DNA of 64,000 nucleotides from Gemmatimonadota bacterium (GTDB taxonomy: Bacteria > Gemmatimonadota > Gemmatimonadetes > Longimicrobiales > Gaopeijiaceae), in the NCBI GenBank assembly GCA_039589315.1, contig JBDHHQ010000011.1, positions 1-64,000 of the forward strand, in the 5' to 3' direction. Shown in pieces: positions 1 to 15,667 of the stretch (positions are counted from its first letter, which is position 1; the number at the start of each line of letters is the position of its first letter). The position numbers and the translations under genes were made by a program. The notes beneath the pieces were generated by a model, which was not told where the DNA came from, did not search any database, and saw nothing but the letters and a program-made list of their open reading frames with translations.

Positions 1-64
1 AAGAAGTGAGTACACTCGAAGGTGGCGGCGGACGGTCGGCGGCAACACGGAGGGGCACCGAAAC

Positions 65-592: not shown

Positions 593-634
593 TCTCGCCC
601 TCGACTCGGCCTCCACAGGAGCAGCCGGCCTACC

Positions 635-661
635 TTCACCGTCGACGGCGGCATGGTGATG
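635..661 (+). pseudogene. Remnant 3' end of fabG (3-oxoacyl-ACP reductase)
   Basis: Reads F-T-V-D-G-G-M-V-M, the typical FabG C-terminus, directly upstream of acpP; rest of the gene absent. Confidence 0.55.
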
Positions 662-717
662 CGGGTTGTCGTGTTCGTTGGAAGTCCCGATTCGCCCCCA
701 CACGCAAGAGGGGTACA

Positions 718-954
718 ATGGCGGAAGGTAGCGAGGGCAAGGTGAAGGAGATCATCATCACGGAGCTGGGCGTTGAATCCGAGAAGGTCACGGCCATGGC
801 GTCGTTCGTGGAGGATCTCGGAGCCGATTCTCTCGACACGGTCGGGCTCGTGATGGCCTTCGAGGACGAGTTCGGAATCGACATTCCTGACGAAGACGCC
901 GAGCAGATGCGCACGGTGGGTGACGCCATCAAGTACCTCGACGAGCACGGATAG
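718..954 (+). CDS. acpP: Acyl carrier protein
   Basis: [37 protein letters not shown] at 718 with GAGGGG RBS. Confidence 0.93.
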
Positions 955-1006
955 GGCTGACCGCTTCGGTTCGCTAGCTGTGAAAACCAAGGAGGTTGTT
1001 CACTGA

Positions 1007-1279
<273 letters not shown>

Positions 1280-1338
1280 CGGTAGGCCGGCAGCCGATCC
1301 AACACGGGGCTCCCGGCCAACGTCCCTAGCGAGGAGAG

Positions 1339-2769
1339 TCAGCTAGGCTCGACCACTCGGGCCGGCGAGATCCGCTCAATGTGGAAGAGCACGTCCCACG
1401 CTCGCGCTGGATTCACAATATGCGGCTCGGGCATGCTCTCCCGCTGCTCCCTCTCCTGGTTCAGCCATTCATAGACCGGCCCCTCCTGGGGGGCGCGTCG
1501 AAGGTCAACGAGAAACATCGGTATCCCCACGCGGGCGAACGCCTCGTCCAAGCTGCCGGCTGGGGGTGGTTTGCTCACTTCCGTCTGATAGGAGGCCCAG
1601 CCCGAGGAAACGCCCTGAGAATAGGTGAACCCCAGGCTCAAATAGTCGGTACCCAGCATGGATTCGGCGTATTCTCCTAGAACCGTCTGGCTGACTCCCC
1701 GCCACACCATCGGGTATTTCGCTATGTGCGTGTTGTGCGCCCACACGACGATGCGCCCGTCGGGACCTTCCCTCGCCAGCGCCCACACAAGATTCTCCGC
1801 CATGCCCGCGTCACGGGCACTGGCATCCTCGACCCGCGACTCAGGTGTCTCTGCAACCAGAGTCGAATCGAAGAAGATCCAATCTCGGAAAGCGCGATCC
1901 AGTTGCCGCGTGAACACCGCCTGCCGATAGGCCCACTCGTAGGCCTCATCGGTTGAGCGCCGGACGTAGTAGACTCGCCAGGTCTCAAACCGCGCGATCA
2001 GCTCGCCTATCGCCGCGCTGTAAGCGTTGCGAGTCTCCCCGGGCAGTAGGCCGTACTCATCGACAGACACTCGCCGGACGCCGCCGCCCTGGCCCAGAAA
2101 AGGTTCAAGAAGCGGACATATCACGCTCCGACTCGTAGCCGCGTAGGCTGGATCTACCTCCTCTAGATAGGTCCACACCGCTTCAAACGGTGTCAAGGGG
2201 CTAACGATTTGGGTTTGGACATCGAGTCCGTAGAAATGGAGCTTCCGGTCGTGCGTCGGGTCGTCGTTGTAGCGCCGCATCCAGCGGACGAGTTCTTGCA
2301 GCTCTTCCTGTGCCCCGAAGTCCGCCGTGAACCAGGTGTTCTTCCAGACATCGGGTTCCTCGCGGAGACCCAGCACGTACTCGTTGATCCACGCGGCCTC
2401 GGAGAAGCCGGTCTCCATCGCGACGGCGGTGAAGCCAAGCTCCTCGACGAAGAACTCCGATAGACGGTGTCGCACCCTGAAGAACTCGTGCGACGCGTGA
2501 ACGCTCTCGCCTAGCGCGACCACGCGAGTGTCTCCGATGATCGCCCTCAGCGGTTGGAGATCCTCGAAGCCCTGCCCCGGTTCGATAGTGGCGATGGGGA
2601 TCGCGTTCTCACGCACCCAGGCTGTGAAGGCTTCAGGGACCTCCTGGATCGCTGCGGCAGGGACTGGAAGCACCACCCACGATCCCACAGCGAACGCGCC
2701 CAACACCTGCCACAAGCTGCGGTGGTGGATCTCGTGGATGAGGCCCCTTACGCCGGTCGGCTTGCCCAT
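1339..2769 (-). CDS. Erythromycin esterase family protein
   Basis: VVALGESVHASHEF, FYGLDVQ, RDAGMAENL and VVWAHNTHIA motifs. Confidence 0.88.
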   Translation of the reverse strand: MGKPTGVRGLIHEIHHRSLWQVLGAFAVGSWVVLPVPAAAIQEVPEAFTAWVRENAIPIATIEPGQGFEDLQPLRAIIGDTRVVALGESVHASHEFFRVRHRLSEFFVEELGFTAVAMETGFSEAAWINEYVLGLREEPDVWKNTWFTADFGAQEELQELVRWMRRYNDDPTHDRKLHFYGLDVQTQIVSPLTPFEAVWTYLEEVDPAYAATSRSVICPLLEPFLGQGGGVRRVSVDEYGLLPGETRNAYSAAIGELIARFETWRVYYVRRSTDEAYEWAYRQAVFTRQLDRAFRDWIFFDSTLVAETPESRVEDASARDAGMAENLVWALAREGPDGRIVVWAHNTHIAKYPMVWRGVSQTVLGEYAESMLGTDYLSLGFTYSQGVSSGWASYQTEVSKPPPAGSLDEAFARVGIPMFLVDLRRAPQEGPVYEWLNQEREQRESMPEPHIVNPARAWDVLFHIERISPARVVEPS

Positions 2770-3223
2770 AGGCGGCTAGAGCGGGACGGGAGAGTCAGGA
2801 TGTTAGGAAGGTGTGGGGCAGACGGCTTGGATGGCAACCATTACCTCGTGGCAGTGTTTCGCGTCCGGCGTCCCGGCCTCCGACACGCGCAGATCAGTGA
2901 GAGCTTCGGGGTTCAGGTACAGGTACTCCTGATCGTCGTTTAGGCTCAACTAACTCTGGGGCAGCCTGATCGGCTGCTCCAACCTCATGTATCACTTGAA
3001 GGGCCGCCCAGATTTCGGATTTGTGGGGCCAATGAGGGGTAGCGGGTCCCATACCCCGCCCCGATTGCCTGCACCCCCCCGGGGGGGGGTCATGGACGAC
3101 GGCCTCGACTATCGAGACTCCCACTCCTTCCCAGAGGCCCCGTCGTCGTTCTTGATTCGGGATGACTCACGGGAGCATCTTCGGATAGCTTCCCCCTGCT
3201 GCACTCCGGTCAGGGACGACGCC

Positions 3224-5578
3224 TTGGACCGTCTAAAGCAGCTCATCCACGAGATCCACCGCCGCACCCTGTGGCAGGTGCTTGGGCTCTACCTGGCCAT
3301 GTCCTGGATCGTCGTCCAGGTGGTGGAAACGCTGACGGAGAGCGCTGGCCTCCCGGACTGGGTGCCGCCCGGTGCGCTAGTACTGCTGCTGATCGGACTC
3401 CCCATCGTCCTCGGCACAGCCTTTGTCCAGGAGGGCGTGGGGCGGAGGCCCGGGGACGCCGAGACGGAAAGCGCCCCCTCAACCTCACCCATCATTGGCT
3501 CCAAGCCCGCCGAGGGCGCGGCGATTCCCGTCGCACGAGCAAGCCTAGCCTCCGGCACGGGCTCCCTCGATCGCCCATCCACGCGACCACCGCGCATCGC
3601 CCGCCTGCTCACATGGAAGAACGCGATGATCGGGGGCGTGCTCGCGTTCGCGGCACTGGGTGCCGTGGTCGCGACGTACTGGCTCATGTGGGTGGCCGGG
3701 GTAGGCCCCGTAGGATCGTTGGTAGCACAGGGGGCCCTGGAGGAGGCCGAACCGGTGATCCTCGCCGCGTTCGAAAACGGGACCAGCGATCCACTTCTGG
3801 GAGACCTCGTCACGTCGACCCTTCGGATCGATCTGGTCGAGTCCCCGGTGATCCAACTCTTGGAGCCGCTCGCCGTTCAGGCCGTCCTCCAGCGCATGGG
3901 GCGGGACCCGTCCGAGCTGGTAAGAGCAGATTTGGCCCGCGAGATCGCCGTTCGCGAGGGTCTCAAAGCGGTCATCGAGGGCGAGGTGCAGGCTGTTGGA
4001 TCCGAGTACCTGCTAACCGCGACGATCCGCGCCGCCGAGAATGGCCGTCCGCTGGCAGCGTTCCGGGTGCGCGCCGAGGACGAAGGCAGCGTCGTGGAGG
4101 CCATCGACGAGCTTTCCCAGGACATTCGCGAGCGGGCCGGCGAGTCGCTTCGCTCGATTCGTGCCGGTGTGCCGCTCGAGAACGTGACGACGAGCTCCCT
4201 CCAAGCGTTGCGCAAGTTCACCGAGGCGGAGGGTCTCACCAGGCAGGGCGATCACAGCGGGGCCCTCACGCTCCTGGAGGAGGTCATCCAGGAAGACCCC
4301 GACTTCGCGATGGCTCACCGACGGATCGCGGTCATCCATTACAACACCACGCTGGATCCGGCTCGTCTGATCGAAGCGTCCACCAGGGCCTACGAACTGC
4401 GCGATCGGCTCACGGACCGCGAGCGGTACCTGGCCGAGGCGGGCTACTACACCGTCGTGCTCGGGGACCGGGAGGCCACGATCCAGGCCTATCGATCGGT
4501 TCTCCGCTCCCACCCAGACGACCCGACTGCCCTGAACAACCTCGCCAACGAATACATCGGTTGGGACGACGAGGCGGCCATCGAGCTGCTCCGGCAGGCG
4601 AACGAGGGTCCGGGGAGAACGAACACCTCTGCTGCTAACCTGGTCCGGGGGCTATTGCGTTTGAGACGCATCGACGAAGCCCGGGTAGTGCAGATGCGTT
4701 ATGAGGACGGCTACCCAAGCGATCTGGGCACAATGGGGACTCGATATTGGGTCCATTTCTTCGCTGGCGAATTCGCTTCCGCCGACAGCGCCGCGGCGGC
4801 GTTGGCCGGGACCCCACTCGGCAACGCGTTCTGGCGAGCTCAGGGCCATACCAGCCTTGCATTCACGGATATCCATCACGGCCGACTGCGCGAGGCCGAA
4901 GCTCATCATCTCGCCGCGGCTCGAGCCGCGGCGGAGCTGGGCCCTCTGGCACATTTCTTCGAAATGGCCATACGAGTTGGCCCGTACCTGTACCTCGAGG
5001 ACAGGGCCAGAGCCATCCGCATGCTCGAGGAGGGCCTGGACCTCTTCAACCAGATACCCTCGATCGCACGACCCTACATGCCGATGGCAAGCCTCCTGGC
5101 GTTCGCCGGTGAGACGGACCGCGCCGAAGCGATGATCGCGCAGTGGGAGCGCAACGTGCCCGAGGTATACCGGTCGGACGCCGACGAGACCACACTACTC
5201 GCAACGCGGGGCCTGATAGCGTGGACCCGGGGTGATCCGGCCCGTGGGCTAGAGCTTATGGATCAGGTGCGCGAGGGTTGCCCGAGCTGCTTCCTGACCG
5301 AGCGCGCCTACCTCATCGAGGAGACGGGATCGCCCGACGAGGCCATCGACGCCTGGGAGGAGCGGGCCGAGACCGTGGACTTGTTCTTTTTCGAAACCGC
5401 CATCCAGTGGCCCATTGTATTCGAGCGCTTGTGCCACCTGCACGCGGAGTACGGAGAGGCCACTCGGGCAGCGCAGTTCTGTTCGAGATTCGTGGATCTG
5501 TGGGCCGACGCCGATCCGGAGCTTCAGCCGAGGGTGCGAGCCGCGAAGCAACGACTGGACGCGTTGACGGGAGCGTGA
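3224..5578 (+). CDS. Membrane-anchored TolB-N-like/TPR repeat protein
   Basis: IHEIHRRTLWQV leader, three hydrophobic segments, DPDFAMAH and ALNNLA TPR motifs; TTG start inferred from paralogs. Confidence 0.8.
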   Translation: MDRLKQLIHEIHRRTLWQVLGLYLAMSWIVVQVVETLTESAGLPDWVPPGALVLLLIGLPIVLGTAFVQEGVGRRPGDAETESAPSTSPIIGSKPAEGAAIPVARASLASGTGSLDRPSTRPPRIARLLTWKNAMIGGVLAFAALGAVVATYWLMWVAGVGPVGSLVAQGALEEAEPVILAAFENGTSDPLLGDLVTSTLRIDLVESPVIQLLEPLAVQAVLQRMGRDPSELVRADLAREIAVREGLKAVIEGEVQAVGSEYLLTATIRAAENGRPLAAFRVRAEDEGSVVEAIDELSQDIRERAGESLRSIRAGVPLENVTTSSLQALRKFTEAEGLTRQGDHSGALTLLEEVIQEDPDFAMAHRRIAVIHYNTTLDPARLIEASTRAYELRDRLTDRERYLAEAGYYTVVLGDREATIQAYRSVLRSHPDDPTALNNLANEYIGWDDEAAIELLRQANEGPGRTNTSAANLVRGLLRLRRIDEARVVQMRYEDGYPSDLGTMGTRYWVHFFAGEFASADSAAAALAGTPLGNAFWRAQGHTSLAFTDIHHGRLREAEAHHLAAARAAAELGPLAHFFEMAIRVGPYLYLEDRARAIRMLEEGLDLFNQIPSIARPYMPMASLLAFAGETDRAEAMIAQWERNVPEVYRSDADETTLLATRGLIAWTRGDPARGLELMDQVREGCPSCFLTERAYLIEETGSPDEAIDAWEERAETVDLFFFETAIQWPIVFERLCHLHAEYGEATRAAQFCSRFVDLWADADPELQPRVRAAKQRLDALTGA

Positions 5579-5632
5579 TGACGACCGCCGAAGCCCCGCA
5601 AGCGCACTCGCCCGTCTTCTTCCCCGTATGCG

Positions 5633-5920
5633 CGATAGGTTCGGCTTGCCGGCGCTCTTTGGCGGTCCTATGAGCCGAGCCAGGGCAAGCAGAGTGTCCT
5701 CGAAGAAGACGTCTTGGACCGTGCGAAAGAAGAAGGGCGCTGTCTCGTTGAGCAGGTCGATCCGGGCGGGCTTGTCGCCAAACAAGATGCGATACTGCTT
5801 CCACAGCGAATGAAGCCAGACAAGCTCCGTTGAAAGCACGTGGAATAGGCGCCCGAGCTTGTCGCCCATCGCGGCGACATAGTCGGCTCTCACCTCGTCA
5901 TGAGACTTGGATTCGCTCAT
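5633..5920 (-). pseudogene. Truncated AbiU2-like HEPN domain protein
   Basis: MG..LG.LF..L..E..WLH..W..Y..LFG...RIDLLNETAPFFF..VQD......L.LARL..PPKSAGKPNL resembles the AbiU2 N-terminal half; resemblance ends ~5633 before any in-frame RxxxxH. Confidence 0.6.
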
Positions 5921-6014
5921 GGTCAGATGCGTTCTTATCCCCTTTCTCCTTGAACGCTTCAAACGCTCAAAGGCCACCTTTCGAGCATTCGACGTGTTCA
6001 AGGGTCAAGGCAGA

Positions 6015-9000
6015 TCAGCCTTTTCCCTTCTTGCGAGCGTCCCAGGTCCAGCCGGGGATGGATTCGAGCCTATCGATCCGGTCCTGAGAGAGCTTGCCTT
6101 TGCGATAATCGTGACGACGGTGTGTAACCCACGCTCCTAGACCGAATCCGTCTTCACGGTGCCTTTGGGGGACCTGAGCGTGGCCCTCGCGCTGGGCAAA
6201 CCGGCTGACCATGTCGGCACCGAACTGGAAATCCGCCTCGTAGGGATCCCATGTCCACCCTCTGACGGATTCAAGCGCGGCGGCCTCAGCCTCCGAGATG
6301 GTGCCTGCCCGGTATCGCTGCCGCTGCCGTGTCAGCCAACTTCCCAAGTCGAATCCTCCGTAATCCACCCCTCGAGGGACACGACAGTTCCCGTTTTGGA
6401 ATGCGAACTCGCTGAATCCTCGAAGCCCAACCTCGAACGTTGAAGAGCGACCGTCGCTATGTTCTGCCAGCAACCTCGCTAATGAGGAACCGCCTGGAAG
6501 CCCCCGCAGACCCTGGTACAAGGCCAACTGGACCTTATTCCACGTCTCACCCGGAGCTTCCTTGATCGGTCCGGAGGCGGCCTTGGGCCATTCGCCGGTT
6601 CGACGGTGATGGGCGTCGGCCCAGGCGAGAATCTCGTCAACCGTGAAGCGCGGCAGATCCTGCACGTTCCGAACCCTCCGGTGCTGGGCGAGCAGTCTCG
6701 CCAGCGACGAGCCGCCAGTTAGCCCCCGAGTTCCGCTCTTCAAGGCAACGTCAACCTTCGCCCAGGTCTCGTCCGGAGCCTCCTCTATTGTACCGGAGTT
6801 CCTACGGGGCCATTCACCTACTCTGTTGTGATAGGCGTCTGCCCAGGAGAGGATCTGTTGGACGGTGAACTGCGGCAGGCCCCTCTTGAAACGAACGCCT
6901 CGATGTTCGAAAAGGAGTCTCGCCAACGTGGAGCCACCTGGCAGTCCCCGCCTTCCGTGTACGAGGCTGAGGTGTACACCAGTCCACGTCTCACCTGGTG
7001 CCTCCTCGATTGGACCTGACTCCGCTTTAGGCCACTCGCCGGTCTCCAGGTGATGTGCGTCGGCCCATGAGAGAATGCCCTCGACGGAGAGGTCTGGTAG
7101 GTGCATCCTGTTTCGGACGCCTCGGTGCAGGGCAAGTAGCGACGCCAGCGACGATCGGCCCGTCAGTCCCCGCAGTCCATAGACCAAAGCGTTGTTCACA
7201 TTGCGCCAGCTATCGTCCGGGGCTTCGAAAATCTGGCCTGATGTCATCTTGGGCCACTGGCGCTCGCGGGCGAAGTGCGTATCAGCCCAAGACAGGACTT
7301 CGTCAACGGTCAGCGGCGGCTTTGTCGTGGAGTTAAGTACGGTCCGTATTCTGAAGGCTTCGGCAAAGTTCGGAGTGATGCCGATGGGGAGATCGAGCGT
7401 GAATCTCGACGGGAGCCTCGCAGCACGTTGCGGCCCGCGCGTCAACTCTAGCCGTATCGCATCGAGTTCGTCTGCCAGGTTGGCGTCGTGCGCTCTCAGC
7501 GCTTTGACCACGTCCCAGACCGGCTTGAACGCCGACGAATCGAGAGCCTCGTCAGCATCCTCGCTCGACTCAATGAATACCGGAAGGAGGATCGTCCCGA
7601 CGGTCTTGTCGGCGGCTTTCCGGATCGCACGCCCAACGGCCTGGACGATATCTACCTGTGAGCGCCGAGGATCGACGAAGGCCACGCCGTCTAAGGTCGG
7701 CACATCCACACCTTCAGACAGGCATCGGGCATTGGCCAGGAGGCCTCGTTGCCCATCGTCCAGGTGCCGTAGCTGGTCCAACAGTGCCATCCGCTGACCC
7801 GTGGCCATTCTCCCTTCGACATAATCGGCCCAGATGTCGCCATCGGGTTGCTCATCGTCAGGCATCCACTCCACGACCTCCGGGAACGAAGCCCTAAACC
7901 TCTTGGCGCCGTCGATCCGACTGTGGAACGTCAGGACCCTTCGCAGATCCCGCTTCTTCATCACCTTCGCCACCGCGATCTGAGCGGCGAGGGTCCGGGC
8001 GTCGGTCTGCTTGCCGTCCACCTCCACGATCCGGCCTCGCTCGGCATACCGCCGATACTCCTCGTCATCCACGCCGACGATGTAGACCTCGTAGTCGGAG
8101 AGCAGATCACGCTCGATGGCCTCGGGGAAGCTCAGGGTGTGCAGTACCGGCCCGAACTTCTCCTCGTCGTCCATGGAGGCGAGTTCAAGGTCGTCTCCGG
8201 CCGCTCGCTTGACGCGCGCGGTATAGAACCGGGGTGTGGCGGTCATGAAGAGCCGCTTCTTGGCCTTGATCCCGCTGCCGTCGAGGATGGCGGCGAACGG
8301 CCCGATGTTTCGGCCGACGCAGCGGTGCGCCTCATCCGCGATGGCAAGGTCAAAGGCCGGGACGCGCCCTCTGGCGAACGCCTCGGCCAGCAGTGGCGAC
8401 GACTGGTACGTGCAGAAGACGATCCGGCGGCCCCGTCCACGAAGAAATGACCGGATCTTCTCCATGTCCGTCGTGGCCGGGAAGCCCAGGTCGGCCAAGC
8501 TGGACACGATGGCGTCCTTCTCGCCGACCACCGTCGGGTCCGAGCAGACCGGCAGGAACCTGAAATCCTCCTGGTGCTGAGCGCACCATACCCGCAGCGT
8601 CTGGGATAGCAGCGAAAGCGTCGGCACCAAGACGAGAGTGCGCTTCGCCTCCAGTGCCTCCGCAAGAAGCACACCGACGAACGTCTTGCCGGTGCCGCAG
8701 GCCATGATGAGCTGGCCTCGGTCCCGGGCGTCAAGCCCGTCCACGACCGCCTCGACGGCTTCCTGCTGATGCGGTCGGGCCTCGAACAGGGGCTCAGGTT
8801 CGATGGGCTGGAGGTCATCGAGAGCCGCAGGCCACCGCACCTGGCTCTTCGCCAGATCCACACCGAGAACGAGGCCCACCGGCTTGGTCTGGATCTCCAC
8901 GGCGTGATGGGCGTTGCCGGAGACGTTGCTGGTCGTGGTGATCAACAAGCGGTAGGAGAACGCTTGGTGGGCCGACTCCGAGAGGAGCGAGTCCACGTCG

Positions 9001-9260
9001 CCCTTCTTGATGGTGCGCTCGGGGTCGTAGGCCTTGGCCTGGATGGCCCAGAGGTCGCCGTCGTTCGTCTCAGCGACGAGGTCGATCCCGGTGTCAGCGC
9101 CCCAGCGGCGGGGCCACTCGTTCCAGAGCCAGACCCGCTTGAGCATCCGCCTGTAGACGGGGTCGTTCAGGAGGTACCACTTGCACAGGTGCTCGAAGGC
9201 CCTGCCGCGACGGTGGCTGTCGAGGGCAAGGAACTGATCGAGCAGGTTCTGGAAGGCCAT
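6015..9260 (-). CDS. Mrr-like endonuclease + SF2 DEAD/DEAH helicase with four 74-aa repeats and two helicase-associated (HA) domains
   Basis: GIDLVA..AIQAK nuclease motif; MACGTGKT, DEAHR, MTATPR, LSEGVDVP and QAVGRAIR helicase motifs; C-terminal G...VP...LG.W...R...GWTWD x2. Confidence 0.9.
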   Translation of the reverse strand: MAFQNLLDQFLALDSHRRGRAFEHLCKWYLLNDPVYRRMLKRVWLWNEWPRRWGADTGIDLVAETNDGDLWAIQAKAYDPERTIKKGDVDSLLSESAHQAFSYRLLITTTSNVSGNAHHAVEIQTKPVGLVLGVDLAKSQVRWPAALDDLQPIEPEPLFEARPHQQEAVEAVVDGLDARDRGQLIMACGTGKTFVGVLLAEALEAKRTLVLVPTLSLLSQTLRVWCAQHQEDFRFLPVCSDPTVVGEKDAIVSSLADLGFPATTDMEKIRSFLRGRGRRIVFCTYQSSPLLAEAFARGRVPAFDLAIADEAHRCVGRNIGPFAAILDGSGIKAKKRLFMTATPRFYTARVKRAAGDDLELASMDDEEKFGPVLHTLSFPEAIERDLLSDYEVYIVGVDDEEYRRYAERGRIVEVDGKQTDARTLAAQIAVAKVMKKRDLRRVLTFHSRIDGAKRFRASFPEVVEWMPDDEQPDGDIWADYVEGRMATGQRMALLDQLRHLDDGQRGLLANARCLSEGVDVPTLDGVAFVDPRRSQVDIVQAVGRAIRKAADKTVGTILLPVFIESSEDADEALDSSAFKPVWDVVKALRAHDANLADELDAIRLELTRGPQRAARLPSRFTLDLPIGITPNFAEAFRIRTVLNSTTKPPLTVDEVLSWADTHFARERQWPKMTSGQIFEAPDDSWRNVNNALVYGLRGLTGRSSLASLLALHRGVRNRMHLPDLSVEGILSWADAHHLETGEWPKAESGPIEEAPGETWTGVHLSLVHGRRGLPGGSTLARLLFEHRGVRFKRGLPQFTVQQILSWADAYHNRVGEWPRRNSGTIEEAPDETWAKVDVALKSGTRGLTGGSSLARLLAQHRRVRNVQDLPRFTVDEILAWADAHHRRTGEWPKAASGPIKEAPGETWNKVQLALYQGLRGLPGGSSLARLLAEHSDGRSSTFEVGLRGFSEFAFQNGNCRVPRGVDYGGFDLGSWLTRQRQRYRAGTISEAEAAALESVRGWTWDPYEADFQFGADMVSRFAQREGHAQVPQRHREDGFGLGAWVTHRRHDYRKGKLSQDRIDRLESIPGWTWDARKKGKG
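6459..7319 (-). repeat. Four tandem 222-bp (74-aa) coding repeats inside the nuclease-helicase
   Basis: Units start at 7319, 7097, 6875 and 6653; consensus P.(L/F)TV..IL.WADAH....GEWP...SG.I.EAP.ETW..V..AL..G.RGL.GGSSLA.LL..HR. Confidence 0.92.
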
Positions 9261-9346
9261 GCGTCAGACGGGCCGAAGAGCGGGAACGGCTCCACCTCAA
9301 GATGCCGGTGTAGACGGGGGTAGCGTCAACCCCTGCCGGTGCCGCC

Positions 9347-10399
9347 ATGCCCCGTCGCGACAGCTACCTGCCCGAGTTCTTCACCGACGAGCGGCTGCGC
9401 TGGTATCGGGAGCTGACGGAACGGTTCCCGCTGTGGTGTGGGCATTGGCCGGAGGAGCACAGGTCGGCACCGGAGTTCGCTTCCTGGCGTCCTGAGCGGC
9501 TGATCTGGGACACCCTGCGAGATTCTTCCGATGCATTCCAAGGCTTCTGGTTCGATCCAGAACCTGCTTCAGACCTGGTCCCGCACCCGGTGCTGCAGTT
9601 GGTCGATGTCGATGCGGCGCGGGAGATCTCAGAAGAAGACTGGGAGGGCGGCTATCCGACCCTGGTGATCTCAGAGACCGAGCCGAAGATCTACGGCGCT
9701 TGGTTCGCCGCCATCAACTACATCTCCTTCAACTGGACCGGGGCGACGCCAACGCGTCAGAGCAGAGCAGGGTCCAGAGACGAGCTGCAGCAAATGGCAG
9801 ATGCCGTCACGAAGGTGCTGACGGAACGCGGGCCCGAGGGATGGAGGCTGTGGCGGGAGGTCAGGGCCGTCTCGACGGCGGAGCCCGGCCAAGAGCGTGA
9901 GGCAGCCATCCAGCGAATGCACGAAGCCTGGATGCAGATCGGAAGGGCCGCAGGTCTGCTCCCCGACGTGTCGGGAGGTGTCAGGTGCGCCCTCCCCGAT
10001 GCGTTCCTGGCCGAGTTGCGCCGGGAGGCCAAGCAGATCGTTGAAGCAGTCCGGGCAGAAGAAGGACCCGAGAGCGATCAGACTGTGCTCATGGATCTAC
10101 TGGCGATGCCGTCACGGCTGGACGACTACCGAGCCAACGTTCAGCAGGAGCGGTTGCGGAAGAAGGGCCTGCTAGAAAGCCTTATCAGGCAGATCGAGAA
10201 TGCGCTAAATCAAGAGGGTGAGCGATCGCCCGAGACCTGGGCCTCGCTGTTGAACTGGCCGATGCTCGCACCCTCGGAGATGGGGTCCCTGAGTCCGTCC
10301 CGCAGGGTTGGAGCCCTCGCCCTCGACCTCACAGCGGGACGTCTTCCGATCACAGCCGGAACGCTCCGAAACCGCACAAGCCCCCACTTGAAGGCCTGA
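9347..10399 (+). CDS. Hypothetical protein (element-encoded)
   Basis: 350-aa ORF with protein-like composition, divergent from the helicase; no family recognised. Confidence 0.65.
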   Translation: MPRRDSYLPEFFTDERLRWYRELTERFPLWCGHWPEEHRSAPEFASWRPERLIWDTLRDSSDAFQGFWFDPEPASDLVPHPVLQLVDVDAAREISEEDWEGGYPTLVISETEPKIYGAWFAAINYISFNWTGATPTRQSRAGSRDELQQMADAVTKVLTERGPEGWRLWREVRAVSTAEPGQEREAAIQRMHEAWMQIGRAAGLLPDVSGGVRCALPDAFLAELRREAKQIVEAVRAEEGPESDQTVLMDLLAMPSRLDDYRANVQQERLRKKGLLESLIRQIENALNQEGERSPETWASLLNWPMLAPSEMGSLSPSRRVGALALDLTAGRLPITAGTLRNRTSPHLKA

Positions 10400-10543
10400 C
10401 GCTCCAGGGTGTTCTGAGCGTCACGACCCTACCCCCCGAGGTCGTGGAGAATCGGCCCTTCCAGCCGGTGTATCTTCCCCTTGAATACACCGGAGACGGA
10501 CAGCCCCGCTCTGGCAAATCAACATAAATCATGAGGTTACGTC

Positions 10544-10726
10544 ATGAAAACCAACACCGAGACGTGCGTTGTCTCCACCCGGTTGACGGCCACGGACCGA
10601 GCCCTCCTGGAGGCCCTCGCAGCCTCCACTGGGCAACGAGTCTCCGAGCTTCTCCGATCCCTCGTGAGGGCCGGGATCCGAGAACGGCTTCCGCAGCAGC
10701 TGGGAGGTCGAGATGCCAGCGCCTGA
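10544..10726 (+). CDS. Ribbon-helix-helix (CopG-like) small regulator
   Basis: VVSTRLT..DRALLEALA...GQRVSELLRSLV pattern; GAGG RBS; heads the replication module. Confidence 0.7.
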   Translation: MKTNTETCVVSTRLTATDRALLEALAASTGQRVSELLRSLVRAGIRERLPQQLGGRDASA

Positions 10727-10820
10727 CCCCGCCGACTCCTTCCCGTCCGGCTGTGAGGGCCATCGGGTGTTCACAGTTCTCCGGGCTGAGATCTGGTGTG
10801 CGCCTGGGGCTTGGAGATGA
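10713..10820 (+). CDS. Small 35-aa ORF translationally coupled to the helicase gene
   Basis: GGAGG RBS before ATG 10713; its TGA overlaps the next start as ATGA (10817-10820). Confidence 0.4.
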   Translation: MPAPDPADSFPSGCEGHRVFTVLRAEIWCAPGAWR

Positions 10821-12304
10821 GCTACTCCGACCCCTACAAGATGAGGACCGACCTCGGTAACGCCCGCCGTTTGGTCAGGCAGCATGGTCATCATATGCGA
10901 TTCGCTGCCGGGAAGTGGTTCGTGTGGGAAAACGGGCGGTGGTGCCTTGACGACACGAACCAGGTCGAGCGGTATGCCAAGGAGGCCATGCTGGCCATCT
11001 GGAAGGAGGTCGAGGCGGAGGAGGATGACGACAGGCGGACGGCGCTGGCCAGACACGCAGCTGGCTCGCAGTCCCGATTCCGCCTAGAGGCCGCAGTTCG
11101 CCTGGCCCGGTCCGAGTGCGAAGTGGCCATGCCTTTGACCGACTTCGACAAGGATCCATGGCTGCTCAACTGCCTGAACGGCACGCTGGATCTCCGAACC
11201 GGCGAGCTTCGGCCTCACGACCCAGCTGACCTGATAACCAAGCTGGCACCCGTCCACTACGACCCGAATGCCGACGCGCCGCTCTGGGGGTCGTTCCTGG
11301 AAGAGGTCATGCACGGCGACGAGGAGAGGGTTCGCTTCCTACAGCGTTGGGGCGGTTACTGCCTTACGGGCGACACAGGGGAGCAGAAGTTCGTCATCGG
11401 CCACGGCCCAGGAGCGAACGGGAAGAGCACGTTCGTCGAGGTCCTTGCCGCAGCCATGGGCGATTACGCCGCTCATACGCCCGTCGAGACCTTGATGAGG
11501 AGCCGAAACGGTTCATCGGCGTCCAACGACCTCGCCCGCCTCCGGGGCGCTCGTCTCGTGACGGCAAGCGAGACAGAGGCCGGACAGTATCTCGCTGAAG
11601 CGAAGGTCAAGCAGCTCACTGGAGGAGACAGGATTACTGCCCGTTTCCTCTACGGCGAGTTCTTCGAGTTCCTCCCGGAGTTCAAGCTCTTCATCTCAGC
11701 CAACCATCGGCCTCGGATCCAGGGCACGGACGAAGCGATCTGGCGGCGCATCGTGCTCGTGCCATTCTCGGTCACGATCCCGAAGGAGCAGCGGGACCCG
11801 AATCTGAAGAGCAAGCTCCTGGTAGAGCTTCCTGGCATCCTCCGGTTCTTCGTCGAGGGGTGCCTAGCGTGGCAGATGCAGGGCCTCTCCGAGCCCGTGG
11901 CTGTGGCCCAAGCGACCGAGGGCTACCGCGAGGACGAAGACGCCCTCGCAGGCTTCATCAGGGATTGCTGTGAGTTAGCCCCGGACGGGGCCGAGGAAGC
12001 GACCAGGCTCTTCGAGGTCTACCAGAGCTGGGCTGCCGCACGCCAAAAGGCTCCAGTCTCCCAGACTGAGTTCGGGAAGCGGCTCGCAGAGCGGGGCATC
12101 GATACGGATAGACGGGGAGGCGGCGGGCGAATCCGTCGCCTGGGCCTTCGCTTGAAGGGTTTGAACAGTTCTGAACGGTCAGCCGAGGAATCTCCCAAGG
12201 ATTCTTCGATAACGCCACTTCTTCCCGCCACCGTTCAAGACCCCTCAACCCTTCAAGCGAACATACCAACGCTCCTCTTCCGTTCCCGAATGGCGAAGGC
12301 ATGA
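10817..12304 (+). CDS. Phage/plasmid P4-family D5_N + SF3 helicase (no N-terminal primase domain)
   Basis: TDLGNARRL, LLNCLNGTLDLRTG, Walker A GPGANGKST, KQLTGGD and AIWRRI motifs. Confidence 0.92.
   Translation: MSYSDPYKMRTDLGNARRLVRQHGHHMRFAAGKWFVWENGRWCLDDTNQVERYAKEAMLAIWKEVEAEEDDDRRTALARHAAGSQSRFRLEAAVRLARSECEVAMPLTDFDKDPWLLNCLNGTLDLRTGELRPHDPADLITKLAPVHYDPNADAPLWGSFLEEVMHGDEERVRFLQRWGGYCLTGDTGEQKFVIGHGPGANGKSTFVEVLAAAMGDYAAHTPVETLMRSRNGSSASNDLARLRGARLVTASETEAGQYLAEAKVKQLTGGDRITARFLYGEFFEFLPEFKLFISANHRPRIQGTDEAIWRRIVLVPFSVTIPKEQRDPNLKSKLLVELPGILRFFVEGCLAWQMQGLSEPVAVAQATEGYREDEDALAGFIRDCCELAPDGAEEATRLFEVYQSWAAARQKAPVSQTEFGKRLAERGIDTDRRGGGGRIRRLGLRLKGLNSSERSAEESPKDSSITPLLPATVQDPSTLQANIPTLLFRSRMAKA
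12153..12255. promoter_or_regulatory. Putative iteron-type replication origin (3+3 inverted 8-mers)
   Basis: TGAAGGGT, TGAACAGT, TGAACGGT (12153-12179) face ACCGTTCA, ACCCCTCA, ACCCTTCA (12230-12255). Confidence 0.6.
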
Positions 12305-12687
12305 TGCGCCTCCACGACCGCATCCGCCGCATCCTCGACGGGATGCCACCCGGCAGCTCAGTAATCCTGCGGGTGGACGATCTGCAGGAGTGGCTGGCCG
12401 AAGAAACCGCAGACGACCGGCAGGAGGATGTGCTACAACCGCCTGACCTGACTGTGGCTCAGGTGGCGGCCCGATTCGATAGATCGGACCAGACCGTACG
12501 GGATTGGATCAAGCAGGGGCGCCTGCGGGCGTACAAGCTGAACGACCGGGAGTACCGGATCACGCCCGCCGCGCTGGTGGAGTTTGAGGAGCAGCAAAGG
12601 TCGGGACGGAAGGAGACGGTTGCGTCACGGCGACGTGCCGACCTGGGTGCGTGGCGACGGGTCCAGAGTAAGGAGCGTGTGCCATAG
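12301..12687 (+). CDS. Excisionase-like HTH (HTH_17/MerR-type) DNA-binding protein
   Basis: LTVAQVAARF....TVRDWIKQGRLRAYK...YRI; ATGA overlap with the helicase gene. Confidence 0.85.
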   Translation: MMRLHDRIRRILDGMPPGSSVILRVDDLQEWLAEETADDRQEDVLQPPDLTVAQVAARFDRSDQTVRDWIKQGRLRAYKLNDREYRITPAALVEFEEQQRSGRKETVASRRRADLGAWRRVQSKERVP

Positions 12688-12792
12688 TTTGTGACACAAC
12701 GGGCCGGATCCGGCCTTGGCCAGCCGAGACGCGTCCCGGCCAAATCCTAGGAATTCCGCGGCTGACCGGGGTCCACCGGGGTCCCGTTCGGT

Positions 12793-12836
12793 CTTTGCAA
12801 GCCGGAGGTCGGGGGTTCGAGCCCCCCTGGCTCCAC
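12793..12836 (+). other. att site: 3' half copy of tRNA-Ala(TGC)
   Basis: CTTTGCAAGCCGGAGGTCGGGGGTTCGAGCCCCCCTGGCTCCAC gives anticodon loop, T-arm and acceptor 3' strand; no D-arm or 5' acceptor strand upstream. Confidence 0.85.
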
Positions 12837-13177
12837 TGATGGAAGTACTTGACCTGAATGATCTTGGGTTTGGGGTCAGTCCGGAGAGGTCGGCCCCCGT
12901 CAACAGATCCGGTAACAGATCCGCTGGTGCGTTGCCACAACTGGGAAGCGGGGAGGGGCGCTGGCCATCAGAACTGGCTCCGCTGGGATGGACAGAAAGG
13001 GGTGGCGGTCGCATCGACGACCGGCGCCCTTCATCCATGTTACCAAGTCTCTAGGTGCCCATCCGTTGTTAGCGGCAGTCGCGATCCGGTCCAGACTCTT
13101 GGGGGAGCCGATCAAAAGCCTTGCCTTATCCCTCCTGGAAACAAATGTTTACAAGACGCATGTTTCGAGGAGGGACA

Positions 13178-13495
13178 ATGTGGTACTGGCAGTGGGTCGC
13201 AATTATCGCGGTGTGGTTCGTGATTGGTCCGCTCTTCGTCTTGATCTTCACGACGCTGGGCCTTGATTACTTCATCGGTCCACGTTCAACCGATCGGACT
13301 CGCGTAGCCAGGAGAACCCGTCCGCTCTGGATGGCGGATGGCACACAGCGGCCGAGACCGCCTCGATCCGTGCTAGCGTTCAGCGCCCGGGACGAGTTGG
13401 GCGGCCGACCCTCCGCCGAGCTGGAGGCCCTGTGGTGGATGGATCGCGCCACCTCTGTCGAAGAGCCGATCCGCAGAGCGATCGGCGGAAACTGA
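13178..13495 (+). CDS. Hypothetical membrane protein
   Basis: Strong GAGGAGGG RBS; N-terminal hydrophobic segment. Confidence 0.6.
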   Translation: MWYWQWVAIIAVWFVIGPLFVLIFTTLGLDYFIGPRSTDRTRVARRTRPLWMADGTQRPRPPRSVLAFSARDELGGRPSAELEALWWMDRATSVEEPIRRAIGGN

Positions 13496-13870
13496 GGCCC
13501 GGGCACAGCTACCTGCTGTGGCGTGAGCGCGACCTCACCCTGAGCGCGCTGTTGTTCCCGCGCATCCGTTTGAACGGTGAGGCCGAGCAGCTCATAACCG
13601 TTCTAGCGATCAAGGCTCATCGCTCCGGAGCGCAGCGCTAGAGCCTCCCAAGCCGTTCCCGTCCACCGCGTCAGCAATCGCTTGACCTCATGCAGGCCCC
13701 CACCTAAATGCGTCACTTCGATCTTGGCGTTGCGTGCGCAGCGCCGTCAGAAGGTCGCGGTGGCGAGCGTTGGATGGTAGAGAACGTCGATCGCGAACAG
13801 CCGAAAGCAGCCAGTTGAACGGTGCGGTTGAGCGATGCGGACCATCTGGGGTCGGGACGGGGGTTTGAGG

Positions 13871-14578
13871 ATGGGCAAGTCATGGTGGGGAGCAGTCGCG
13901 TTAGGTCTAGCGGTCATTCTCGTTGGCGGGTGCGAGACAATCGTCACGCACGAGGATCCAACGTCCGAGGATCCGAATCGGCCGACCAGGGTCTTCGGTT
14001 CGGGCGTCGTCGTGATAGAGAGCCGCGCCCTCGAGAGCTTCACAACGGCCGAAGCCCGAGGTGGTTCATATGAAGTCGTGCTGGAGCTGGCCCCGACACA
14101 CGCCGTCGAGATCACCGCGGACGACAACCTCGCCCCGCTCCTGCGCACGAACGTCCGCGAGGGCAGGCTCGTCATTGCTGTGGATCCGCAACTGCGACTC
14201 GTCCCGACCGAGCCGATCGTCCTCCGGGTATCCGTTACCGAAGTCTCCGAGCTGATCGCCAACGGGGGGGTGTTGCTGAACGCCGACGTGGGTGCCGTGC
14301 CCCAGTTAGCTATCGGCGCGAGCGGCGCGTCGGTGGTGGACGTCACCGGATCGGCGGAGCGGCAGGTCCTGTCCATCAGCGGGGCGAGCGTTTTCCGGGG
14401 ACTCGATCTCGAATCCAGCGAGAGCGTGGTCATCGCTTCGGGGGTGAGTCTCGCTGAGCTGTGGGCGCACGACCACCTCGAAGTCGATGGCAGTGGTCTG
14501 TCCACGATTCGCTACCGGGGGCAGCCCGTCGTGATCGCACGCTTGAGCGGAGGCTCCACCGTTAGCCCCATCCGGTGA
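13871..14578 (+). CDS. DUF2807 (head GIN domain) lipoprotein
   Basis: Lipobox LVGGC; EITADDNL and SGAS repeats; SG.S.I.Y.G.P C-terminus. Confidence 0.85.
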   Translation: MGKSWWGAVALGLAVILVGGCETIVTHEDPTSEDPNRPTRVFGSGVVVIESRALESFTTAEARGGSYEVVLELAPTHAVEITADDNLAPLLRTNVREGRLVIAVDPQLRLVPTEPIVLRVSVTEVSELIANGGVLLNADVGAVPQLAIGASGASVVDVTGSAERQVLSISGASVFRGLDLESSESVVIASGVSLAELWAHDHLEVDGSGLSTIRYRGQPVVIARLSGGSTVSPIR

Positions 14579-15667
14579 CGGTGCGGTCGTTACCGCCGCC
14601 AGCGCCAGCGACGAGGAGCGTGCTGAGCCGATTCCCGTCGATCGCCCGCAGCGTGATCTCCCAGCCAAGCCGTGACCGGCTTGAGGTACTCGATGCCAAG
14701 CACGCCGGGCTGCTCCAACGATGCGAAGCTGTTCCAGTGGTGGGGTACCGAGCTGGCCCTCGCCTTCCGGCCCAACGACGAGCACCCCGACTTCTTCCGC
14801 GTGGACATCTGGGCGCGAGTCGGGTGTGCGGCTGGCATCGGCCAGATCCTGAAGGGGCCGCTCAACTGTGGGAATCAGTGGATTCGGGTGCGCGGCGGCA
14901 TGGGTGTCAGCATCGAGCCATACCTCGGCTACCGTTGGGCGCGGGTGGCGCACCGCGGCGAGGCGGGCGAGCCGATCGACCTGGCGAGTAACACACCACT
15001 ATGATGCGAGATGCAGCTGCCATCTCCCTCTGCCGACGACTAGTTGCTGATCGAGAATGTCAGGTTGCCCAAGGGGTCGGTCATGACTGTGACCACGTCG
15101 CCGGGAGCGGCGGTGGAGTCGCGTTAGCAGGGATCCCATGCCCCCGCCGGCCCCCCGGTGCCACCATGGTGCCATGGACGACCGCTACGAACCCCTGTTC
15201 AGGTTCCCGCGCCACGCGGGCCGGATGACCAACGCCGAGCCTCGAGACATTCGCGGTGGACGTGTGAATCGCGGCCGGCCTAGGGCCACAGGAGCCGCTA
15301 CTGGCGCAGCGGGATCGAGCCGCCGACGCTGAAGCGGCCCGTGGGCTGTGTCGGGAAGAGGTGGAAACGAAGAAGCCCACTTGATCCCGACTTGACCGGC
15401 CCCGGCCACGTTCCAGGTGAACTCTGACTCGCCTGGGATGGACGTCAGACCGGGGCCCGTTCGCGTCGTCAGCGCCGTCACACTCATACTGACCACCGCC
15501 TGTCAGACATGACTCAGTGTCGTTGGTTCGGTCTTGCTCGGACCGCGACCGCAGCAGTGCCCTGTTAGAACGCGCGTGTGCACTTAGACACCAAGTTGGG
15601 CTTCATGCGCCTGGATGAGTTCGTTCAACTCCCGCTCGATCCGAGAGCCTCATTGGGCCGCTTCACC

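Follow-up and report, generated by a model that had tools for sequence, protein, structure and literature searches.

How can a DNA-cutting motor choose its substrate and spare its host once the host-protecting methylase is gone? Thousands of bacterial genes raise this question by having kept the cutting and motor half of the Type ISP restriction enzymes and dropped the methylase, and no report of the targets of these enzymes or of the survival of their hosts was found in the literature that could be searched. One such gene, which encodes the protein P0001, lies in a 64,000-nucleotide stretch of DNA from a Gemmatimonadota bacterium, referred to here as the window. The most likely reading, to which we give about an even chance, is that P0001 acts as an ATP-driven, methylase-free restriction-type nuclease whose C-terminal array selects the DNA. 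The locus adds a putative reader tail of swappable small modules, here of two unrelated-looking kinds in one chain, and an uncatalogued repeat, R74, which outpaces the motor by far in its diversification and also occurs in direct fusion with nucleases. Modular reading of DNA sequence by such arrays would make them a recognition scaffold that is new to biology and might be of use in engineering; should they recognise features of modified or foreign DNA, the proteins would form a class of restriction enzymes without a methylase that is both large and new.

A Type ISP nuclease-motor without a methylase

Judged from its motifs and alignments (Table 1), P0001 combines, intact and in a single chain, an Mrr nuclease and an SF2 DNA motor that belong to the Type ISP lineage. 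Residues 3-603 align with residues 15-656 of LlaBIII (PDB 4xqk) with an E-value of 5.6e-91 in a phmmer search against the PDB, in which LlaGI (PDB 5ffj) is matched at E 5.9e-67, and the nuclease and helicase motifs pair residue for residue with those of LlaBIII. The nuclease residues E23, D56, D60, Q74 and K76 (DTGIDL ... IQAK) are all kept. The roles of the motif E ... D-x-G-x-D ... Q-x-K in Type ISP enzymes are described in PMC2790908, according to which D74, D78 and K94 of LlaGI, the equivalents of P0001 nuclease residues, are essential for cleavage. Helicase motifs I, II, III and VI are likewise intact, with GTGKT (Walker A) at residues 189-193, DEAH at 309-312, TATP at 340-343 and QAVGRAIR (motif VI) at 540-547.

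The likeness to LlaBIII and LlaGI, in which the same Mrr-family nuclease is followed by the same SF2 motor, is colinear up to residue 603. The Type ISP enzymes continue with a coupler, an N6-adenine methyltransferase and a target recognition domain (TRD), whereas P0001 has none of the three and carries four R74 units and two helicase-associated (HA) domains at residues 648-1081 in place of the MTase-TRD part; the alignment ends at LlaBIII residue 656, and a C-terminal TRD of the Type ISP kind is not present. No methyltransferase family was found in P0001 (Pfam at E <= 0.1; NCBIfam) or in the 37 neighbouring frames scanned (26 + 11, positions 1-33159), and neither Pfam nor NCBIfam revealed a known family of modification readers, such as SRA or EVE, in P0001. 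The initial annotation had proposed an Mrr-like nuclease and SF2 helicase with intact motifs, an N-terminus shared with Type ISP enzymes, an array standing in for the MTase-TRD and no methyltransferase in the reading frame or nearby. All of this is borne out, by the Pfam matches and motif positions, the LlaBIII alignment and partial PADLOC profile, the replacement of one half by arrays of small domains and the scan of the neighbouring frames, respectively.

The PADLOC check that had also been suggested gave partial matches only. Its Type ISP model, REase_MTase_IIG (PDLC03597), is matched at profile positions 3-653 of 1646 only (E 1e-151); the N-terminal half of P0001 is hit by models of Type ISP and Type I R-M enzymes, and the PbeA helicase is matched weakly. 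PADLOC-DB 2.0 gave neither a full-length component match nor a complete system for P0001, and no match for the neighbouring genes.

A functional analogue is SauUSI, which consists of a nuclease, an SF2 motor, a coupler and a TRD and has no methyltransferase (PMC7913695). This ATP-dependent Type IV enzyme (PDB 7clg) resembles P0001 in that one polypeptide holds a nuclease, an SF2 motor and, at the C-terminus, a recognition part, but no methylase; however, its nuclease is of the PLD type and its SRA-type TRD reads 5-methylcytosine, whereas the nuclease of P0001 is of the Mrr family, and no sequence similarity between the two proteins was detected.

Table 1. Features of P0001 and its surroundings in the window
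Feature	Position	Strand	Residues of P0001	Evidence or remark
P0001 reading frame	6015..9260	-	1-1081	1081 aa; nuclease, helicase, 4 x R74, 2 x HA; stop codon 6015-6017
Mrr-family (PD-(D/E)xK) nuclease domain	8826..9167	-	32-145	Pfam Mrr_cat_2, E 1.3e-34
Type ISP-like nuclease and SF2 motor module	7452..9254	-	3-603	phmmer against PDB; PADLOC PDLC03597
SF2 helicase core	7617..8786	-	159-548	Pfam and motifs; ResIII 159-344, Helicase_C 433-548
Four tandem R74 units	6432..7319	-	648-943
R74 unit 1	7098..7319	-	648-721
R74 unit 2	6876..7097	-	722-795
R74 unit 3	6654..6875	-	796-869
R74 unit 4	6432..6653	-	870-943
Two HA (helicase-associated, PF03457) domains	6036..6431	-	~944-1008, 1009-1075	Pfam
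AbiU2-type HEPN fragment, downstream neighbour	5651..5863	-		Profile positions 2-67 of 193 only
P0241, divergently transcribed	9347..10399	+		350 aa; no recognised family
D5_N + DUF5906 primase-helicase of mobile element	10796..12304	+		Profile match
HTH_17 (AlpA/excisionase-like) protein	12301..12687	+		Profile match
Strain-specific segment (approximate)	5580..13600			DNA comparison with same-genus genome G001

Relatives with HA and R74 arrays

The N-terminus of P0001 is matched by 7,989 of 7,999 scored candidates. Among the matches listed, all 119 closest relatives consist of Mrr and SF2 parts without a methylase and without R74, and are 55-60% identical to P0001 over 97-100% of residues 1-640; 115 of them carry between one and 14 HA domains (mostly six to eight), and four carry none. 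By these matches and by a tree of the motors, which places it among the members, P0001 belongs to the large Mrr-helicase-HA family. These proteins, which are named "Helicase associated domain protein" or "DEAD/DEAH box helicase" in, e.g., Mycobacterium and Rhodococcus, have the same domain order with C-terminal HA domains and no methylase, and their genes stand alone on plasmids. P0001 differs from them in having only two HA domains with four R74 units ahead of them. R74 is also found behind the same Mrr-helicase motor in other proteins, and such arrays are common. The R74-bearing nuclease-motors of Planctomycetota resemble P0001 in the motor (46-56% identity) and in the R74 units that follow directly, with arrays starting at, or within three residues of, residue 648 of P0001 in P0017, P0024, P0066, P0116 and P0117 (residue 645). 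They contain five to 14 R74 units and no HA domain, as opposed to four and two in P0001, which comes from a phylum in which R74 was found in none of 300 other genomes.

The enzyme design is widespread, and the suggestion that it is a new architecture does not hold, given the 119 listed relatives that are already methylase-less Mrr-helicases and the frequent occurrence of R74 on this motor. Similarly, the "new defence enzyme" of the initial annotation falls into a large and already named family as far as the methylase-less Mrr-helicase with HA arrays is concerned; what stands is the mixture of R74 and HA, which was seen in P0001 alone among the 435 proteins examined. An assembly chimera is an unlikely source of this mixture because a near-identical variant (1080 of 1081 residues), which differs by a single substitution and keeps the full length, is on record on four contigs. 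The gene is present in one copy in its own genome. No functional study, phenotypic or biochemical, of an Mrr-helicase-HA or R74 protein was found in the searchable literature.

The R74 repeat and the HA domains

The period of R74 is exactly 74 amino acids, or 222 nucleotides, at the protein and DNA levels, and the four units, which confirm the tandem repeats described initially, are 53-64% identical to each other. In the AlphaFold2 model (pLDDT 94.5, pTM 0.73), the array folds with confidence as a module of its own that is made up of small helical units, each consisting of a helix, a beta-hairpin and two further helices. R74 matches no Pfam family at E <= 10 and no NCBIfam family across the repeats. 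An assignment to INT_rpt (PF14882) was rejected, as none of the four units gave a hit at E <= 10; PF14882 also had no match in five planctomycete genomes holding R74 arrays, in a search run without a positive control. The two HA domains described initially are confirmed by the Pfam HA profile, which is matched in two stretches of P0001 and scores 102.3 bits where the cut-off is 28.4, and a model of residues 867-1081 has a pLDDT above 90 across the HA part. The second HA domain aligns with the NMR structure 2kta over 72 of 74 residues (Z 7.0; next row Z 3.7), and PMC12191111 cites the HA domain as a reported DNA binder. R74 and HA occupy the same place on the same motor, their models show the same order of helix, beta-hairpin, helix and helix, and a tryptophan opens helix 2 in both. 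However, the loop between helices 2 and 3 is longer in R74, a profile comparison gave an hhalign probability of 0.2%, and 2kta, which the HA part matches, does not appear in the listed rows of the R74 search.

R74 matches 3,202 protein clusters, which are mostly from Planctomycetota and mainly stand-alone arrays. Across 786 units, W11, W22, P23, W38, R50 and R66 form a near-invariant scaffold, whereas positions 24-26, 29, 31, 39, 40, 43, 46, 47 and 49 are hypervariable and map to the loop of the hairpin and to a single face of helix 2. The mean net charge per unit is +2.7, the leaders of the arrays are basic, and a hydrophobic leader was found in none of 71 stand-alone arrays. Fusions recur with nucleases and with two kinds of SF2 helicase, and R74 is joined directly to an Mrr nuclease in five proteins (P0350, P0378, P0357, P0281 and P0028).

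The structure search with one repeat, which had been proposed as a check, returned only weak helix-turn-helix-like matches (best Z 4.4), and R74 is a predicted DNA binder. In geometry, an R74 unit fits best, though weakly, onto the SauUSI four-helix coupler subdomain (residues 616-668; rmsd 2.5 Å over 52 residues, Z 3.9). An array that does not read double-stranded DNA at all, but binds a protein partner, single-stranded DNA or RNA, thereby serving as a scaffold or a sensor that switches the motor on, would fit the lack of a strong match to a DNA-binding domain, the resemblance to a coupler, which is a linker rather than a DNA reader, and the 117 of 136 newly retrieved R74 representatives to which no enzyme is attached. 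Such a role is nevertheless rather improbable in view of the repeated fusions to nucleases and two SF2 helicase kinds, the basic units and leaders, and the position of R74 where relatives carry HA, the reported DNA binder.

Divergence of arrays and motors

When the R74 and HA labels were mapped onto a tree of 79 motors, four changes were needed, at least two of which are forced by well-supported branches. Of the 59 pairs of enzymes that bear R74 and whose motors share at least 75% identity, 57 have arrays that are 49-66% identical, as opposed to 78-91% for the motors. Repeat number on related motors, which had been proposed as a check, varies from five to 14 R74 units. Divergence is far faster in the arrays than in the motors. 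The idea that the array is a DNA reader gains indirect support, because the motor tree shows two or more switches of array type, because the arrays diverge beyond the motors, because helix 2 has a hypervariable face, and because R74 units are basic and fused directly to Mrr nucleases.

A more far-reaching proposal is that R74 arrays are natural modular DNA readers, in which each unit would contact a short DNA stretch via the hypervariable hairpin and helix-2 face and arrays of four to 16 units would be exchanged to retarget nucleases. Mrr-R74 proteins would then be TALEN-like, Mrr-helicase-R74 proteins would be retargetable restriction motors, and P0001, as the only mixture of R74 and HA seen, would show the two to be interchangeable heads that one array can combine. 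This proposal is speculative, and we consider it unlikely.

Proposed mode of action

On the preferred reading, P0001 probably cuts incoming or foreign DNA, the predicted target of its repeat tail. By analogy to the TRD of Type ISP enzymes and SauUSI, the C-terminal array would bind DNA and choose the substrate; this binding would license ATP-driven translocation, whereupon the Mrr domain would cleave. The sporadic distribution of the gene and the mobile carriage of its relatives speak for this reading. Lacking both a methylase and any known means of immunity, such a nuclease-motor would be expected to endanger the cell that carries it, which counts against this reading, as do the PADLOC matches to half-models alone, the weak structural matches of R74, the lack of a conserved neighbour around R74 genes, the fragmentary AbiU2 gene and the absence of an integrase from the contig. 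The host could be spared if the target is modified, as in Type IV-like systems, if the recognised sequence or structure is rare in the host, or if the enzyme is regulated.

Genomic island and mobile carriage

The gene lies on a strain-specific segment. DNA matches to the same-genus genome G001 stop at position 5570 and restart at 13596-13605, with one 45-base match in between (12793-12837). Matches to the gene occur in two of 40 related genomes, both at 37-43% identity, and, among 300 further genomes from the phylum, in 19; its distribution is sporadic and island-borne. A housekeeping helicase-nuclease of DNA repair or recombination is hinted at by NCBIfam, in which the helicase core resembles XPB, UvrB, RadD and Hef, though weakly and in every case far below the cut-off. 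The gene was not found in the other 38 related genomes, including that of the same genus, it is a single copy on a strain-specific segment, and the nearest solved relatives of its product are restriction enzymes, which makes a housekeeping function highly improbable.

The initial annotation regarded the gene as cargo on a satellite element. Among the features of phage satellites and integrative elements (P4-like, PICI-like), a primase-helicase and an excisionase-like HTH_17 gene are indeed present, but no tyrosine integrase was found on the contig, no tRNA, att-like or flanking direct repeats were detected, and no capsid or packaging family occurs in the frames scanned; the satellite element is a putative one. 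Part of the element could be missing because the contig starts at base 1 of the window. Of the other neighbours, P0241 is matched by none of Pfam, PADLOC and PHROGs, and the ESM Atlas gave only unnamed clusters for it; the nominal reading frame of the AbiU2 neighbour (5249-6001) overlaps the end of a convergent TPR gene (2987-5578). No conserved neighbour was found around R74 genes.

Decay of the island could have left the gene as an inert passenger, unexpressed or inactive. The AbiU2 neighbour is a fragment, as is an rve gene at 1013-1279, the integrase is missing, the match of the primase reading frame to phage primase profiles is confined to their C-terminal part (e.g., positions 333-755 of 772), and no sigma-70-like promoter was found for the gene. 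However, the promoter scan covered this one promoter type alone, 1081 codons are open with all motifs intact, and the single-substitution variant is full length too; an inert gene is thus very unlikely.

P0001 might instead process the DNA of its own mobile element during transfer, replication or end recognition, the array recognising a feature of the element. Such a role is possible because relatives on two Rhodococcus plasmids (44-45% identity) adjoin MobF relaxase genes and because TtrA of Streptomyces, a helicase with tandem HA domains located at telomeres, is implicated in transferring telomeric ends according to bioRxiv 10.1101/2024.11.13.623437. Motor relatives are present on 621 plasmid records, 301 of which are from Streptomyces, with many among the listed rows lying a few hundred bases from the end of the record, and in the window the gene adjoins the primase-helicase and the excisionase-like gene. 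The SF2 helicase of TtrA is of the same lineage (28-38% identity in 25 listed Streptomyces rows); however, TtrA is subtelomeric with a proposed role in conjugal transfer. P0001 is encoded on a draft contig. The Streptomyces proteins match only residues 147-646 of P0001 (12 of the 25 listed rows cover residues 159-634), with starts at about residues 147-181, and therefore lack the Mrr nuclease, all catalytic residues of which are kept in P0001. For this reason, P0001 was rejected as a telomere helicase of the TtrA type. In addition, the scanned frames of the window contain neither a relaxase nor a conjugation gene, and the primase, P0241 and HTH_17 genes accompany relatives of the gene at none of six loci examined. 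Altogether, processing of the element's own DNA is an improbable function.

Relatives of the restriction-type nuclease favoured here also occur in other mobile contexts. Some plasmid copies adjoin NACHT, RES-Xre, DUF262 or HEPN genes, and a contig in IMG/VR encodes an Mrr-helicase of 1035 amino acids with five R74 units, flanked by genes for a prohead protease and an integrase.

Domain architecture and relationship to Type ISP enzymes

The nuclease-helicase consists of an Mrr nuclease and an SF2 helicase, together forming the motor, followed by four units of a 74-residue repeat (R74) and two helicase-associated (HA) domains. The Mrr motifs (E23, D56-x-G-x-D60 and Q74-x-K76) and the helicase motifs (GTGKT 189-193, DEAH 309-312, TATP 340-343 and QAVGRAIR 540-547) are complete. 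The R74 units share pairwise identities of 53-64%, and the array is visible at the DNA level as a 222-nt period. No Pfam methyltransferase family was matched in the ORF. ORF, Pfam, motif and repeat data thus bear out all elements described in the initial annotation, namely a nuclease, a helicase with intact motifs, four 74-aa repeats, two HA domains and no methyltransferase in the ORF. Since a 1081-aa variant with one changed residue is recorded on four contigs, the mixed R74 and HA tail is unlikely to be an assembly chimera.

Features of the nuclease-helicase gene and its surroundings
Feature	Position	Strand	Remarks
Nuclease-helicase ORF	6015-9260	minus	Uninterrupted frame, 1081 codons
Mrr_cat_2 domain	aa 32-145	minus	Pfam, E 1.3e-34
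ResIII	aa 159-344	minus	Pfam
Helicase_C	aa 433-548	minus	Pfam
Four R74 units	start aa 648, 722, 796, 870	minus	Head-to-tail, exactly 74 residues each, between helicase and HA domains
Two HA domains (PF03457)	C-terminal to R74 units	minus	Pfam, 102.3 bits (cut-off 28.4)
AbiU2-type HEPN gene	5249-6001, match 5651-5863	minus	Profile positions 2-67 of 193 only (first third)
350-aa ORF (P0241)	9347-10399		No family assigned; in strain-specific segment
D5_N/DUF5906 primase-helicase	10796-12304	plus	Matches C-terminal part of phage primase profiles only, e.g., positions 333-755 of 772
HTH_17 excisionase-like gene	within strain-specific segment		Family match

The protein is homologous to Type ISP enzymes, and its motifs are intact: residues 3-603 are colinear with residues 15-656 of LlaBIII (PDB 4xqk; E 5.6e-91), and LlaGI (5ffj) is matched with E 5.9e-67, which agrees with the earlier statement that the N-terminus is common to these enzymes. 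A study on LlaGI gives D74, D78 and K94, equivalents of the nuclease residues found here, as essential for cleavage, to which E38 and Q92 contribute (PMC2790908). While the complete Type ISP nuclease-motor with all its Mrr and helicase motifs is present, the coupler, methylase and TRD of Type ISP enzymes are all missing, and the PADLOC Type ISP model is covered only at profile positions 3-653 of 1646. From the alignments and the intact motifs, the protein is apparently a functional Type ISP nuclease-motor lacking these three parts. SauUSI is composed of a nuclease, an SF2 motor, a coupler and a TRD, and likewise has no methylase (PMC7913695). By analogy with Type ISP enzymes and SauUSI, the array of the nuclease-helicase would bind DNA and thereby permit translocation powered by ATP, with cleavage by the Mrr domain as the last step. 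We hold this reading of an array-guided, ATP-driven, methylase-free Mrr nuclease, for which we infer binding, translocation, cleavage and target, with moderate confidence.

A widespread family of methylase-less Mrr-helicases

A search with residues 1-640 matched 7,989 of the 7,999 scored candidates. The 119 relatives listed among these matches are 55-60% identical and all contain Mrr_cat_2 and SF2 domains; HA domains are present in 115 of them (1-14 copies, most often 6-8) and absent in four, and R74 was found in none of these 119 closest relatives. The sources name such proteins "Helicase associated domain protein" or "DEAD/DEAH box helicase" (Mycobacterium, Rhodococcus and others). Because Mrr and SF2 domains are shared by all 119 listed relatives and HA domains by 115, a methylase-less Mrr-helicase carrying an array of small domains is an already existing architecture. 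The suggestion of a candidate new enzyme therefore does not stand for the architecture, which belongs to a large named family, but the mixed R74 and HA tail is a new variant. The gene thus encodes a mixed-tail form, found in a foreign phylum, of the nuclease-motors that derive from Type ISP enzymes and have no methylase, a class that is widespread and already named. The literature searched yielded no functional work on Mrr-helicase-HA proteins.

Motor relatives are found on 621 plasmid records, with NACHT, RES-Xre, DUF262, TcmP and HEPN genes as well as MobF relaxases as neighbours on the actinobacterial plasmids; the Mrr-helicase and array design is clearly mobile outside the window. Of the relatives with a described role, the nearest is TtrA of Streptomyces, a telomere-located helicase with tandem HA domains that has been implicated in the conjugal transfer of chromosomal ends (bioRxiv 10.1101/2024.11.13.623437). 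A similar role of the nuclease-helicase for its own element would fit its HA domains; however, the matches on Streptomyces plasmids span only residues 147-646 (residues 159-634 in 12 of the 25 listed), so these Streptomyces proteins lack the nuclease, whereas the enzyme studied here has an Mrr domain, and a TtrA-like role is unlikely.

Of 435 proteins examined, only the nuclease-helicase combines R74 with HA domains, and it has the fewest R74 units; as the protein listings favour high-copy arrays, further mixed arrays may exist. The motor of the nuclease-helicase is most similar to those of HA-type enzymes (median identity of 58% versus 46-53% for 16 full-length R74-type matches); the motor of the R74-type protein P0397 is 56% identical. 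R74 was found in none of 300 other sampled genomes of the host phylum and, within the host genome, in this gene only; an origin beyond the phylum is therefore most likely, either for the R74 block or for the entire gene. The gene is single-copy. With this query, only two of 40 relatives gave a match (37-43% identity, in ORFs of about 1,400-1,540 aa), and the same-genus genome was among the 38 without one. In the phylum sample, 19 of the 300 other genomes contain a match, mostly in frames of more than 1,000 aa and often of 1,340-1,650 aa, as long as Type ISP enzymes, and one match is an HA-type copy with 58-61% identity. A housekeeping repair protein would hardly show such a distribution, and this explanation is very improbable.

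Distribution of the R74 repeat

R74 matched no Pfam family, even at E <= 10, and no NCBIfam family. A profile of the four units, searched against 1.84 billion cluster representatives, retrieved 3,202 proteins at E <= 1e-3 and 2,527 at E <= 1e-10. The search of species genomes yielded 177 confirmed stretches and 77 retained loci; almost all belong to Planctomycetota (Gemmataceae, Pirellulales, Isosphaerales and Phycisphaerae) and a few to Armatimonadota and Verrucomicrobiales. The commonest gene form is a stand-alone array of 5-14 units, at times in several consecutive genes; 117 of 136 newly retrieved representatives are of this type. The leaders of these arrays are short and basic, and none of 71 is hydrophobic. 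Two to four tandem stand-alone genes are found in Gemmataceae and other planctomycete genomes (locus L023, 1984-9560, with 6-8 units each, and loci L013 and L081); here too the leaders are basic, and no enzyme domain can be recognised in the arrays.

R74 arrays are also located behind motors of the type described here (46-56% identity) and behind a different ResIII helicase. On the related motors, the repeat number varies from 5 to 14 units, a variation for which the initial annotation had proposed to look. In five metagenome proteins (P0350, P0378, P0357, P0281 and P0028), Mrr_cat_2 is fused to 6-10 R74 units without a helicase, a layout that recalls engineered TALE nucleases. An IMG/VR contig (L087, 2-10676) encodes a 1035-aa Mrr-helicase with five R74 units between the genes for a caudovirus prohead protease and a tyrosine integrase, the latter followed by a DnaB-like helicase. 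This gene sits at a prophage end, and prophage ends often house prophage-borne defence genes. In two planctomycete loci (L012, 1-8485, and L063, 3414-13033), an R74-array gene adjoins a DUF499 and DUF1156 gene pair, a pair predicted to be a restriction-like defence system. The commonest neighbour of R74 genes is a Ser/Thr kinase (9 of 77 loci); such kinases are abundant in Planctomycetota, and the association was put aside as probably incidental. Precomputed Pfam labels on R74 proteins (HD, Phage_TAC_18, 3HBD, Pyrophosphatase, DUF2274, DUF7936 and Phage_int_M) were rejected as spurious, as they are marginal, lie inside the repeats and pass in no single stretch. ESM Atlas returned only unnamed planctomycete clusters for R74 (0.78-0.80).

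R74 fold and the array as candidate specificity module

An AlphaFold2 model of residues 645-945, based on an alignment of 61 homologous arrays, has a pLDDT of 94.5 and a pTM of 0.73. In the model, each unit begins with a helix of 15 residues, followed by a short beta-hairpin and two further helices of 10 and 9 residues. Foldseek, recommended earlier for the repeat, gave only weak structural matches in the PDB, none below E 0.16. The best VIA-align hit among 48,161 chains is a TetR-type HTH (Z 4.4), followed by weak HTH, homeodomain and AraC matches, and a second structure search gave the same result. The four-helix coupler subdomain of SauUSI weakly resembles the R74 unit (Z 3.9, rmsd 2.5 A over 52 residues). 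As a control, the HA domain of the nuclease-helicase retrieved the HA NMR structure 2kta with Z 7.0 (next match 3.7); 2kta is absent among the matches listed for R74. Profile comparison of R74 with HA by hhalign gave a probability of 0.2%. The R74 and HA models show the same succession of elements, a helix, a hairpin and two further helices, and in both a Trp opens the second helix; a very distant kinship is possible.

In a maximum-likelihood tree of 79 motors, at least three groups of R74-bearing enzymes are interleaved with HA-bearing ones; four changes of array type are needed, at least two of which are forced by well-supported branches. Among pairs of R74-bearing enzymes with motors at least 75% identical, the arrays are only 49-66% identical in 57 of 59 cases, the exceptions being P0105/P0016 and P0105/P0042. 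Across 786 units, a near-invariant scaffold (W11, D13, W22, P23, G28, W38, L45, G48, R50, L62 and R66) accompanies hypervariable positions (24-26, 29, 31, 39, 40, 43, 46, 47 and 49), which in the model would make up the loop of the hairpin and a single side of helix 2. The mean net charge per unit is +2.7. Changes of array type, array divergence, the hypervariable face, the charge and the direct nuclease fusions together point to the R74 array as a putative nucleic-acid-targeting module. A target other than dsDNA is an unlikely alternative for the array. The most interesting question raised is whether R74 arrays read DNA modularly.

Genomic context of the nuclease-helicase gene

DNA of the same-genus genome matches the flanks of the region from ~5.6 to 13.6 kb at 65-80% but, within the region, only 45 bases (12793-12837). 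Only the first third of the AbiU2-type profile is covered; the remainder of that ORF overlaps the 3' end of a convergent TPR gene and looks like an antisense reading, and the gene is probably a truncated defence gene. The primase-polymerase part of the primase-helicase may be missing or encoded by the upstream ORF P0241, for which ESM Atlas gave unnamed clusters only. No tyrosine integrase was found on the contig, and neither att-like flanking direct repeats, a tRNA nor, in the segment, a capsid or packaging gene was detected; Rfam families were absent from positions 1-20000. The primase, P0241, HTH_17 and AbiU2 genes were not found beside relatives of the nuclease-helicase in six loci. The gene had been described as cargo of a satellite element: with primase and excisionase-like genes nearby, cargo of a mobile-element remnant is reasonable, but a satellite is not borne out, as no tyrosine integrase, direct repeats, tRNA or capsid or packaging genes were found. 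A scan for sigma-70-like promoters gave none, and sites resembling terminators were no more frequent than expected by chance. An inert relic, as the truncated neighbour and the promoter search might suggest, is quite improbable for an uninterrupted frame with complete motifs.

An 80-base non-coding element (13605-13684) marks the right end of the strain-specific segment. It recurs at 16 other places in the host genome (79-100% identity), with several copies per contig, and at more than 10 places in the same-genus genome, and corresponds to neither an Rfam family nor a tRNA. Near the contig start, a fragment of an rve integrase-core transposase (1013-1279, plus strand, below cut-off) adjoins an erythromycin-esterase-family gene (1339-2769, minus strand). 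Three large TPR proteins (2987-5578, 16301-18385 and 18521-20521) form one paralogous family, and parts of their genes have counterparts, with 65-80% DNA identity, at many sites in the same-genus genome.
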